DNA of 64,000 nucleotides, from NCBI GenBank assembly GCA_964016885.1, contig OZ024740.1, positions 319,424,001 to 319,488,000 of the forward strand, written 5' to 3'. The translations under genes were made by a program, and so were the position numbers. Under the pieces are notes generated by a model. It was not told the origin of the DNA. It was given only the letters and a program-made list of their open reading frames with translations, and ran no database searches. Origin of the DNA: Eledone cirrhosa (taxonomy: Eukaryota). Shown here one piece after another: positions 1 through 61,176 of the stretch. The stretch's first letter is position 1, and every line of letters starts with the position of its first letter.

Positions 1-71
1 ATTTATACATATACATATTTATATATATATATATATATTATTATTATGTAATAAACAACATAAGGCAATTA

Positions 72-132
72 TTCCATTTACCAGTGGTTTCTTAAAAGCA
101 AAAGGTTTTGCTTTCAATCCTCAGAATGAAAA
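72..132 (-). ncRNA. Minimal type I hammerhead ribozyme (inverted pLTR copy)
   Basis: Reverse complement of the 4164-4224 and 8307-8367 motif. Confidence 0.8.
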
Positions 133-1526
133 ATCCTGGTTTGTTTATTGAATATGGATTCTAAAAACAAAAATGCAATCTATATGAAAGTGAGGCTGGA
201 AAAGGGAGAAGGAAAGGAAAAATAAAATAAAATAAAACTACACATGCAAACACACACAAAAAAAACATAAAAGCATACTTACACGCACACACATATATAC
301 ACATATAATTTGCACGCACACATATATACACATACACACACATACATATATATGTATATATATATATATATATATATACACACATATATATATATATATA
401 AAAAGAGCGTACACCTACACACACATACACATATATACACACATATACACATACATATATTCATACATACACACACACACACACACACACACACACATAT
501 ACACACACACACACACATATATATACACATGTACATATCCATACATATATATATATATATATATATACATATATATATATATACATACATATACACATAT
601 ACAGACATATACATACACACACACACACACACACGCACACATGTGTGTGTACAAGCCTACACATACACACACACATATATATACACACACATATACATAC
701 ATTCACACAAACATACAACGTACATACATACACATACATGAATGCACTCCACTACATATTAACACACGCAAATAAATATAAGAAAAAAATATATATAAAT
801 AATATTAACAAATATTTGACAGCGATACATGCCCCAGCTAACAGGACAGACACGCGTGGTAAGTAATACACACATAAGCACATATACATACGTTCGAAAT
901 AGTAAACACATACACACACTCTCACACATAAATATACATATACAAATACATAAACACGTACATACACATACATACGCAAACACGTACACGTATACAATAT
1001 AAACACACACATGTATATGTAATTATATACACACACACACACATATATACATATATATATATATATATATATATATATACATACAAAAATATAAAAATAT
1101 AAACGCAAACACACATATACATACATAGCTAAACAATTATACACATGCAAATACGTATATATCAAAAGAACGCACAACCAAATACAAACACACACACATA
1201 TATATACACACACACACACCCCCACACACAAACCCACACATACATAAAAATAAATAAAAACACACGCAACATATACATACATACACATACATATACATAT
1301 ATACATACATACATATACATATACACATATACACACACATATATATATAAATATATATATATATATATATATATACACACATACACTTACACATACACAC
1401 ATGCATACACATACACACACACATATACATGTGTGTATGTGTAAAGCTCAGTATTAGATAAGACAAATGAACCTTACATAAACGTATATATAGTAGTAAA
1501 GTAATAAAGCCATACAAGGCAATTAA

Positions 1527-1586
1527 TCCATTCACCAGAGGTTTCTTAAAAGCAAAAAAAGTTTCCTTCAATCTTCAGAATGAAAA
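1527..1586 (-). ncRNA. Degenerate hammerhead-like motif (GUG at the cleavage triplet)
   Basis: Reverse complement of 7037-7096. Confidence 0.6.
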
Positions 1587-2039
1587 AAAGCCCTGGTTTA
1601 TCCACATATACATACATATACACACACAAATATACAAATATATACACACATACAGACACGCACACACACATATATATATATATATATATACATATACATA
1701 TATATACACATATATATATATATATATATATATATATATACAGACATATATACATACACATATATACACATACATACATACATATGCATACATACATACA
1801 CATATATATACATACACAAACATATACGTACACATATACATATATACACACACAAATACATACACATACACATAGGTATGTGAAGGGCAAAACAAAAAGA
1901 ATATATGGGGGAGGGCTAAGAGGAGGTAAAAATATAAGGGGAGGTAGGGGGAGAAAAATTATTTTTAAAAATACAAGAGTACAGAAGGTAGAAGCAGCAA
2001 AATAAAAGCCGTAGCAAAAGTAAAGAGCAGAGAAGGAGT

Positions 2040-58069: not shown

Positions 58070-59690
58070 CAAAAGAATGCTTTTGATGACAACATTCTTA
58101 GTTGACTGGGTATCCTTCAGAAACACTCTGATATTTTCTTTTCGTTTTCCGCGGCTAACGGCTACATACAGTTGACCGTGTTGGAATACAGGTCGTTCCA
58201 GATAAACTAAGACGTTTTCCATAGTTTGTCCTTGTCCTGACTAGGAGTAGGAAGCTGTCATTCCCTGACGTTATCTCTAGGGATACGGGAATCAGCAGAC
58301 AGGACCTTGGGGCAGCGTTGGGGGACAGGGGATTCTGGGGCATGAGAGTGAGATCCATCATCTCGATAGTAGTCGACGAGTGATGATGATGATGATTAGT
58401 CATAGCGAAGCACGATTGAACTGGGAATTGGCTTCGCTGCAAAGGGATATCCTCACCTTCGGATAGACTAATTCTTATTCTAGGTATCATAACGATCTCA
58501 TTTCTGAAAGCAGCAGTGTTGATTCTTGCTACTATGAGATTGTCGTGCAGTTCTTCCACGATCATGCGCGTTCCATTACAACGCCTTGGAGGATTCAAGT
58601 TTTTCATAAGATTTATTGGCGATCCTTTTTTCAATTCCAGGTTATGTGGTGGCAGTCCTGATAGTTCAACCGAATCAAGGAATTCAGTCGGGAAATGAGT
58701 GGCATTGGCACCATCACTCACAGAATTATAGGATCGGTACACTTTTATGGTTCCAGGGAAGCGTCTGATACAGGTGGAATTGATGCTTCTCATCATTTCA
58801 TTGAGAGGTACTAAGATGCAATTGTTCGAAAACACTTCAGCTGGATTGTCGAATGAGGGGTAGATGAAATCAATACATTCTTCCATAGTTGTTGCTTGGA
58901 GAACCATTTCTTTTGGCAAAATAATTTCCTCATTTTCAGTTTTTTTAATCTTATCTTCTCCAATATCTAATAGGAACTGTGAATAGTCTCCTGCTCCCCC
59001 ACCCAATCGCATGTTTGTCTTCAACTGAAATCTTTTGAAGCTTCGCCATAAGTTTCACCATGAAAAAGCATTGTATGACAACAGACACAGATCCTATTCA
59101 TCTGTCCAATATCAGCAGAGAGGTCACGTCGTTGAACTGTCCTTGCTCTATCCCTAATGGTTTGTTGGCAAATACGTTCAGTTCTCCGAGCGTCTGATTC
59201 ATGATCTCTCCTTTTTCTGTCTCTTTCCCTCTGTTCCTCCTGACGCTCAGCTCTCCGACCATCCGATTCATTATCTCTCCTTCTTCTGTCTCTTTCCCTC
59301 TATTCCGCCAGACGCTCAGCTCTCCTACCATCCGATTCATGATCTCTCCTTTTTCTGTCTCTTTCCCTCCGTTCCGCTAGATGCTCAGCTCTCCGACCAT
59401 CCGATTCATTATCTCTCCTTCTTCTGTCTCTTTCCCTCTGTTCCGCCAGACGCTCAGCTCTCCGACCATCCGATTCATGATCTCTCCTGCTTCTGTCTCT
59501 TTCCCTCTGTTCCGCCAGACGCGCAGCCCTTGCTTTATCAGTCTCATTGATCCTTCTATTCGCATGCCTGTCCCGATCTTGTTGGGCGTTGACCACTATC
59601 TTGCTCACCTTCTTCAGCTCTCCTTAGCCGTGCTTTCTTTCCACTATCAATAGACCAACCAGATGTTTTCTTTCTTCCCTCTCGAGGCAT
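58070..59690 (-). pseudogene. Helitron Rep/Hel remnant: N-terminal 23-aa STPR-like repeats joined by a large deletion to the C-terminal PIF1-type helicase
   Basis: RRAERLAEQRERDR repeats (69 bp); KTNMRL, LPPHNLELKKGSP...CNGTR, IPRI, SQFPVQSCFAMT, and PVFQHGQLYVAVSR after an insertion. Confidence 0.85.
58215..58395 (+). mobile_element. LINE (RTE-like) 3' tip with a (TGA)n tail inserted in the helicase
   Basis: Interrupts the helicase between FAMT and HGQLYVA; reads FPDVISRDTGISRQDLGAALGDR and ends tgatgatgatgatgat. Confidence 0.6.
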
Positions 59691-59699
59691 TATTTAAGA

Positions 59700-60270
59700 A
59701 TCGAAAATCGTATTCACCTTAGAAAAAATTCCTATTACCTCAACAAATATTTTTTTTAAATCATCATTTAGAAATATTTCTAAATAGTGAAAATATTGTC
59801 TGTTTAAACAACTCGTATTTTTCAAATCATATTCACTTAAAAAATACTTATTAATAATTAAAATATTCTGTTTAAAGAAAGCTGAAATATATATACTCGG
59901 TGTACAAATAATTTATATTTTTTAAGTCATTTTCACTTAAGAATATTTTTTAAATATGCCAAGAAATATTTTTTCCATCGTATTCACTTTAAAATAATTT
60001 TAAAAAATCAAGATATTGTCTATGTAAATAAAGCTATTTGTGAAATCAAATTCACTTTAAAATATTTCTACATAATTGAAATATTCTTTTTAACAAAAGC
60101 AAAAATATAAACACCTGCTGTTTAACACCAACTGGTATTTTTCAGTGATATTCACTTAATGTTATTCTGATAATTAAAATATCGTCTGTTTAAAGACAGC
60201 TCAAATATAGATACTTGAAGTACAAATAACTTGTAGTTTTGAAATCATTCACTGAGAAATCACTGAAAAA
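59700..60270. repeat. Degenerate AT-rich repeats with core (t)attcacttaaaa, also present at 53980-54290; probably Helitron subterminal
   Basis: Core word recurs about 8 times. Confidence 0.6.
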
Positions 60271-60481
60271 TCTTTTTTTAATAATTATAAAAAATATTTC
60301 TCGAATGATGAAAATAGGTTATGTCGATTTACATCAAACTTGTTTTATCCCAATTTCAGGGTGATATCACTTACAGGGCTATTTTTCCATTATGCACCGT
60401 TTTGGCTATTTACGAAGGTATCCTACACACACCCACACACACACACACACACACATATATATATATATATATATATATATA

Positions 60482-61176
60482 TAAGTTGTAATCAAATGAA
60501 AACGAAATTTCATTTCTCACTCTTAGTACGGCACTTACTTAAATTTAAGTATGTATGTATACGTACATACATATATGTATACAGATGTACAGTAGCATGC
60601 ATATATATATATATATATATATATATATATATATATATATATATACATACAGGTACACATACATATATGTACGTATCAGTTTAGCGGACGCTTATTATAA
60701 CGCCCGCTTTGTTCGTTTGTAAACAAACTGAACAGCCTGAATTTATGCCGTACGGTGTTAAGGCAACCACGTCACCTTTTTGTTCAACACTGACACAGGA
60801 ACGATGTACTAGTTTCAAGCTTGTTAGCTATCATCAGCACCGTATACCCTTCTGCCAGATGGTTGAACGTTCGAAAGTATATACTTTCCTTATGAAAATT
60901 AACGGCTGAGCAGCCTAATTTGCATATCGAGTGAGTTCGGCCAGGCGTACCGAGAACGATAAGTTGTAATAAAATTAAAACGAAATAAACGGCATAAATT
61001 CAGGCTGTTCAGTTTGTTTACAAACGAACAAAGCGGGCGTTATAATAAGCGTCTGCTAAACTGATACGTACATATATGTATGTGTACCTGTATGTATATA
61101 TATATATATATATATATATATGCATGCTACTGTACGTCTGTATACATATATGTATGTACGTATACATACATACTTA
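60482..61176. mobile_element. Small HHR-bearing non-coding element: ~480-bp minus-strand unit plus an inverted copy of its 3' part
   Basis: Inverted arms 60546-60751 and 60989-61176; direct redundancy taagttgtaat.aaat.aaaacgaaat at 60482 and 60960; (TA)n flanks. Confidence 0.75.
60801..60843 (-). ncRNA. Minimal type I hammerhead ribozyme with canonical core
   Basis: Minus strand acggtg-CTGATGA-tagc-taacaa-gctt-GAAA-ctag-TA-catcgt; palindromic ACTAGT stem III. Confidence 0.8.

Follow-up and report, generated by a model that had tools for sequence, protein, structure and literature searches.

The window analysed here, a 64,000-nucleotide stretch of contig OZ024740.1 in the 3.0-Gb genome of Eledone cirrhosa, contains 17 hammerhead ribozyme motifs in five families of repeats. 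These are a Penelope-like element (PLE; family A), an array of 316-bp units (B) and elements at 25.5 kb (C), 54–57 kb (D) and 60.8 kb (E), to which a foldback at 25780–26073 (F) can be added (Table 1). It is likely that the window holds three Hydra-type PLE families (A, C and D) and three unrelated retrozymes (B, E and F) sharing one insertion footprint, and that the retrozymes were inserted in trans by a Hydra-type reverse transcriptase (RT)-endonuclease.

A strict type I hammerhead descriptor recovered 15 of the 17 motifs, five in A (124 and 1578 on the minus strand; 4172, 7044 and 8315 on the plus strand), seven in B, two in D and one in E. It gave no match in any of five shuffles of an unbiased 600-kb genome sample, which is made up of 60 stretches of 10 kb, taken from large contigs at coordinates fixed beforehand; the shuffles did not include the window. 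The two remaining motifs are mutated copies recognised by eye: the copy at 22472 in array B has an altered stem III, and that at 25536 in C lacks G12, which is present in the commonest form of the family. Rfam returned only seven sub-threshold HH9 matches in the window, all located in array B (22–25 bits; cut-off 52). A preliminary description, made from the letters of the window alone, had reported these 17 motifs as type I hammerheads in five unrelated families, all set in (TA)n and four of them inverted. This inventory was borne out. In each of the five families stem III forms a palindrome or comes close to one, inspection of the flanks found (TA)n bordering all five and head-to-head arms with the 3′ ends outward in four, and blastn detected no similarity between the families at E<0.01.

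According to the NUH rule a G at position 17 predicts an inactive hammerhead, and by this rule two of the five motifs of family A (7044 and 1578; G17) are predicted to be inactive. The G17 variant in the 3′ untranslated region (UTR) of A is a second, diverged hammerhead copy, which is retained in many A copies.

Table 1. Arms and coding region of the PLE and retrozyme insertions in the window (ORF, open reading frame; pLTR, pseudo-long terminal repeat; T1 and T2, inner and outer end site).
Feature	Position	Strand	Description
A inverted arm	36..3690	-	5′-truncated, ORF residues 162–710, hammerheads 1578 and 124; ends at T1 in (TA)n
A main arm	3691..8468	+	Hydra-type PLE (by motif): pLTR with hammerhead 4172, 710-aa ORF, 3′ UTR with G17 variant 7044 and hammerhead 8315; ends at T2 in (TA)n
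A ORF	4444..6576	+	RT and putative C-terminal endonuclease; RWK, DKT, CxCX5C, CxxC and CxH motifs
B inverted arm	21805..22436	-	Retrozyme, two 316-bp units; ends at T2
B main arm	22432..24228	+	5.7 units, six U3-A8 hammerheads; ends at T1
C	25437..25752	-	5′-truncated 3′ end of third PLE family; hammerhead without G12
F foldback stump	25780..26073	.	From 438-bp hammerhead retrozyme; both arms stop before the ribozyme; left end T2 (~40-bp tail), right end T1
D long arm	54333..55950	-	Last 21 codons and 3′ UTR of second Hydra-type PLE (by motif); hammerhead 54520; ends at T2
D short arm	55947..57285	+	3′ UTR, hammerhead 57187; ends at T1
E main arm	60483..60987	-	One 480-bp unit and tail, hammerhead 60837; ends at T2
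E short arm	60988..61177	+	Inverted, without ribozyme; ends at T1

Penelope-like families A, C, D and G

The single ORF of A is open over 710 amino acids. Its protein shares the CxCX5C linker, CxxC and CxH with that of D, and CCHH is absent from both; the RT motifs are RWK and DKT in A and RWR and DKT in D. Pfam and PDB searches with protein A yielded no match, and its C-terminal endonuclease was recognised by eye from its motif. Homologues of this protein numbered 1339 among 8000 candidates scored, and one homologue carries PF01541, presumably the GIY-YIG domain.

For each element family the best 40 of 877–2117 genome candidates were scored with 1.5–3 kb of flanking sequence. Copies of D elsewhere in the genome run into an open 740-aa ORF whose product is 36% identical to the A protein, and a strict test found upstream coding sequence at 13 of 20 D loci and at 4 of 20 C loci. 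Judged by alignment continuity, the latter count is 7/20, three of the C loci having been chosen because coding matches were visible. The coding pieces at one C locus (L252) span residues 78–694 of A, and an unbroken C ORF was found at none of the 20 loci. On the evidence of these sequences, the C and D elements of the window are truncated 3′ ends of two further PLE families. The preliminary description had taken both for non-coding and had proposed one helper with four parasites; instead, PLEs and retrozymes are each represented in the window by three families.

By the motif criteria of Craig et al. (2021; PMC8557442), A and D classify as Hydra-type PLEs. With the Hydra clade they share RWK (RWR in D), DKT, CxCX5C, CxxC/CxH and the lack of CCHH, together with a canonical hammerhead, the (TA)n target, an inverted 5′-truncated copy and a tail at one end, and by eye A resembles Hydra-1_Obim, an octopus element with (TA)n preference listed in the supplement of that paper. 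However, Hydra elements are generally under 3 kb, whereas A and D, with their long UTRs, measure about 4.8 and 4.0 kb, respectively. The tails of A, C, D and E are likewise longer (61–97 bp) than the 30–40 bp given for the clade, and, unlike in published accounts of it, several young PLE families coexist here, many copies being 99–100% identical. The Naiad clade was considered for A and rejected, since the putative endonuclease is C-terminal and the Hydra motifs are present.

Following an E-like unit through the genome led to a further PLE family, G. This family is young, with no fewer than 28 copies that match exactly across 301 bp, and represents a strong candidate for an active helper. The possibility that E is the pLTR of G was rejected, because G carries its own 3′ hammerhead in 21/24 loci and the E-like unit, present in 2/24, belongs to a separate retrozyme, E2.

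Retrozymes B, E and F

The tandem units of B, E and F measure 316, 480 and 438 bp, respectively, and each unit contains a type I hammerhead; against the range of about 150–450 bp for retrozyme units, E is slightly long. The longest ORFs within the units amount to 28–75 amino acids. Coding sequence upstream on the same strand was found at 1/27 loci of B, 0/25 of E and 0/37 of F, and in the sole B case (L008) it is separated from the unit by the other arm and flank. In the sampled copies, with their flanks of 1.5–3 kb, none of the 89 loci of the three families shows a retrozyme unit contiguous with an ORF. Whole units are repeated head-to-tail on both arms, up to about six times, and read-through past T2 enters the next unit and not a 5′ UTR and ORF. 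As far as sequence can tell, B, E and F look non-autonomous.

Although the F copy of the window is a ribozyme-free stump, longer copies carry the hammerhead in tandem units. An assignment of F to the miniature inverted-repeat transposable elements (MITEs) was rejected, given its unequal ends, variable joint and lack of fixed symmetric terminal inverted repeats. The earlier suggestion that many apparent foldback MITEs of this genome may be retro-insertions was thus confirmed for the one foldback tested (1/1). Several F copies also carry a SINE-like repeat (SINE, short interspersed element) at one AT-rich site. At one locus (L282) an apparent chimera of F with a PLE was discarded, since a long TA run intervenes.

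E2 is a sister retrozyme of E with a unit of 470 bp and 1800 candidates in the genome. The alignment of E with E2 scores 159 (shuffle maximum 78), and stem covariation within the E group is seen in 6/12 pairs, from two lineages only. The footprint of E2 is like that of the other retrozymes; inversions are present in five of the six loci not picked for this feature, the other eight of the 14 having been selected for inversions. A 5-nt word common to three tails was rejected as a recognition sequence, being too short to count.

One to two exact copies of an octamer motif occur in each of the units of E, F and E2 examined (window 60483–60987, L279–L298 and L104:1030–1500, respectively; background 0.03 per 450 bp), and the motif is found neither in B nor at the PLE ends. 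It could represent an internal promoter. Newt satellite 2 reportedly uses an snRNA-type promoter with an octamer, which the literature search did not confirm. As regards B, contigs from the runs of four organisms share 0.49–0.68 of the words of its unit (22750–23065), and the 316-bp head-to-tail joint was seen in two of these four contig sets; family B is therefore not confined to one data set.

Insertion footprint and genome-wide load

The ends of every family fall on one or other of two fixed sites, which lie downstream of the ribozyme, 32–97 nt apart and, measured in window coordinates, 40–320 nt past the cleavage site. Among loci with two outward ends, the inner site T1 is paired with the outer site T2 in 59/67 cases (p 1e-10; A 1/2, B 16/18, C 4/4, D 11/12, E 8/8, F 19/23), and for the retrozymes B, E and F alone in 43/49 (p 6e-8), whereas the joint between the arms varies from copy to copy. 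B, E and F also display a tail at one end only and an inverted 5′-truncated arm, both of which are known features of PLEs (PMC8557442). Inversions were found at 18/27 loci of B and 8/25 of E, compared with 1/29 of a SINE control (p 4e-7 and p 0.008, respectively), which instead shows target duplications (24/29). Since both flanks of B, E and F consist of (TA)n, a target duplication of more than 4 bp is not readable at these loci. Short flanks restrict the inversion rates of A (2/27) and C (4/29), and for a mariner element the count of head-to-head arms was discarded because it reflects the element's own terminal repeats.

Runs of TA measuring 8 nt or more, no more than 32 nt from the 3′ end, are present at 29/29 ends of A, 42/47 of B, 27/29 of C, 33/35 of D, 31/32 of E and 51/61 of F. 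The corresponding values are 5/29 for the SINE, 9% for random positions and 25/29 for the mariner. The enrichment over SINEs proposed in the preliminary description therefore stands both for inversions and for TA (124/140 for B, E and F together). As a specific signature of hammerhead elements, however, (TA)n fails, because mariner shows it as frequently (p=0.75). Taken together, a PLE-type footprint common to coding and non-coding hammerhead families is supported.

The mariner control corresponds to a Tc1/mariner element at 24518–25416 (HTH_48, HTH_32), which strongly prefers (TA)n, so that B, C, F and mariner cluster here in one TA-rich landing zone. The SINE-like repeat with target duplications lies next to it at 24276–24462 and is very abundant, with 68 3′ ends in the 600-kb sample.

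In that sample, 32 hammerheads were detected in 18 stretches, corresponding to 53 per Mb (bootstrap 28–82) and, by extrapolation, to about 160,000 in the genome (85,000–245,000). Hand sorting assigned the 32 motifs to 26 insertions, 12 of them inverted (one CT-repeat artefact excluded). A (TA)5 follows within 229 nt downstream of all 32 motifs, against a background of 19–24% and 14/68 SINE ends. Coding sequence was absent from the 2 kb upstream of each of the 32, and most sample hammerheads are thus not assignable to helper or parasite. Published counts, obtained with other descriptors, are about 9,000 in Xenopus, more than 6,000 in coral (PMC7229834, PMC4209133) and 120,000 in axolotl (PMC7229834). 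The notion that hammerhead elements are the main source of (TA)n tracts is unsupported, as 29 of the 341 long tracts in the sample adjoin a detected end, which is a lower bound. Another small hammerhead family, which has inverted arms and a stem III with a palindrome of 6 nt, contributes 4/32 sample matches (L300:3830–3858, L336 and L339).

Proposed mode of insertion and its alternatives

The retrozymes show the same two-ended mirror footprint as the coding PLEs, which suggests that they were pasted by a PLE enzyme. In the proposed mechanism the Hydra endonuclease would nick both strands of (TA)n; one nick would serve RT for an internal start at T1, the other for a start at T2, and the resulting pair of cDNAs would be joined wherever synthesis halts, early halts leaving foldbacks without a ribozyme. 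Tandem units would originate from multimeric or circular retrozyme RNA, and the ribozymes are predicted to cleave as dimers via the palindromic stem III and to process the RNA. The computed self-duplex of stem III ranges from -3 to -10 kcal/mol and no hairpin is formed; dimer cleavage through a palindromic helix III has precedent (PMC4209133). The ribozyme itself is predicted not to set the insertion ends, matching its dispensability in vitro.

The tail has been called unique to PLEs, and in vitro work on PAc Poseidon attributed it to RT starting at two internal sites (Frangieh et al. 2024, PMC11167929). As proposed here, both strands of AT-rich DNA are cut in that system. No strand difference in start site is described for it, in contrast to the pairing of T1 with T2 at most loci of the present families, and its protein-binding signal lies inside the ORF, which the retrozymes do not have.

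One locus, C1510, may record an encounter between helper and parasite. It harbors a single inverted insertion, one arm of which ends in G's own 3′ end. The other arm consists of a fragment of the G ORF with 577 nt of UTR and passes, through a microhomology of 4 nt, into an E2 unit whose end lies at the T1 of E2 in (TA)n; the remainder of the G UTR was not found in the next 6.1 kb. Read most simply, this sequence reflects an RT that switched template from E2 RNA to G RNA, but it could also have come about by a later insertion accompanied by a deletion or by misassembly of the small contig.

Several points weigh against insertion in trans by a PLE enzyme. The chimera is one locus on an unplaced contig of 24.6 kb, and in the sampled families blastn detected nothing in common between the retrozymes and the 3′ ends of PLEs. 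With the best 40 candidates per family and short flanks, a coding parent of the retrozymes could be missed, and C and D likewise looked non-coding in the window. For F (23/37) and D (12/20), a choice of loci that favoured inversions has raised the inversion rates, and the equal TA frequency at mariner ends belongs here as well. Finally, ribozyme cleavage is not needed for PLE insertion in vitro (PMC11167929), and 8/9 predicted Xenopus retrozymes did not cleave (bioRxiv 10.64898/2026.07.22.740005).

These reservations bear directly on an alternative that we regard as unlikely, namely that B, E and F represent pieces of the pseudo-LTRs of autonomous PLEs whose families lie outside the sample, and that they move in cis. 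Two of the four supposed non-coding families, C and D, proved to be just this, and the absence of coding sequence within 2 kb of the 32 sample hammerheads extends to known coding families, the sampling being shallow. Movement in cis is nevertheless difficult to reconcile with the complete lack of contiguous ORFs at the 89 retrozyme loci, when the same sampling revealed coding sequence in 13/20 loci of D and 4/20 of C, and with the tandem whole units on both arms, in which T2 is followed by another unit where a 5′ UTR and ORF would be expected.

That a different RT, from a long interspersed element (LINE), moved the retrozymes and that twin priming generated the inversions appears very improbable. 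Twin priming does give rise to inversions in L1, and LINE-type fragments are present in the window at 62–64 kb. The SINE, by inference a LINE passenger, shows target duplications and a single inversion, though, and twin priming should leave a single 3′ end, where the retrozymes have two, facing outward at two fixed sites. Just as little credence can be given to an origin of arrays and foldbacks at the DNA level, by unequal crossover, fold-back repair at fragile (TA)n or MITE-like transposition: (TA)n tracts are plentiful (341 in 600 kb) and satellites can grow by unequal crossover (bioRxiv 10.64898/2026.07.22.740005), but the copies are spread over many contigs at 98–100% identity, fixed unequal ends with variable joints are the reverse of a MITE, and the coding PLEs obey the same end rule.

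Insertion of the retrozymes in trans, the reading preferred here, has been anticipated. PLEs were named as likely helpers of metazoan non-LTR retrozymes on the basis of co-occurrence and pLTR homology (PMC7229834; bioRxiv 10.64898/2026.07.22.740005, Li, Clavereau and Pollet). The helper/parasite community of the preliminary description is hence an idea already in print; its shared PLE footprint was found, and its single helper with four parasites was not. Like the published retrozymes (Cervera and de la Pena 2020, PMC7229834), B, E and F carry type I hammerheads in non-coding tandem units a few hundred base pairs long. Unlike them, they lack homology to the sampled PLE ends, and the inverted arm, two-site tail, (TA)n target and PLE chimera seen here do not appear in the text consulted of PMC7229834 or the preprint; the word 'inverted' occurs nowhere in PMC7229834. 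No report of a PLE footprint on retrozymes was found in the literature searched, with subscription papers, Repbase and the supplements of the 2026 preprint outside its coverage.

Non-autonomous Chlamys elements such as MRC1 (PMC8557442) are comparable in that they too are carried by PLEs, possess pLTRs and occur head-to-tail. Their 3′ sequence is also that of their helpers, and a canonical hammerhead is lacking in most Chlamys elements, whereas the ribozyme repeats described here are unrelated to the sampled helpers. The hammerhead variants of PLEs (Cervera and de la Pena 2014, PMC4209133) share the palindromic helix III and the U3-A8 core, stem mostly from truncated PLE ends and include opposite-strand pairs 100–700 bp apart. 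Their counts reach about 9,000 per genome, compared with the 160,000 extrapolated here for 3.0 Gb with another descriptor.

The remaining features of the window comprise a hexamer/trimer satellite of about 20.8 kb with long open low-complexity frames (28069–48869), a 48-bp minisatellite of 56 copies with 93% matches (11749–14429), a Pif1-type helicase fragment on the minus strand (58155–59054; PF21530) and, also on the minus strand, broken frames recalling a non-LTR RT (62049–63796), of which the one frame tested gave no Pfam match.

In conclusion, the window represents an instance of an already proposed helper-parasite system, with stronger evidence than was found in print. Evenly balanced, in our judgement, is the wider proposition that Hydra RT-endonucleases are promiscuous in trans, using two fixed start sites on unrelated ribozyme RNAs, one per nicked strand, with a template switch between helper and parasite in one event, and that this accounts for the densest hammerhead load of the genomes compared, much of it in the guise of foldback 'MITEs'. 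The pairing of T1 with T2 limits the ways in which PLEs can employ their two nicks. Annotators of such genomes should note that a short TA-flanked foldback can be a retro-insertion rather than a DNA-transposon MITE. Moreover, retrozymes with a PLE footprint and start sites defined at the nucleotide level, in combination with A, D and G as young candidate helpers, make trans-mobilisation directly testable by the existing in vitro PLE assay.

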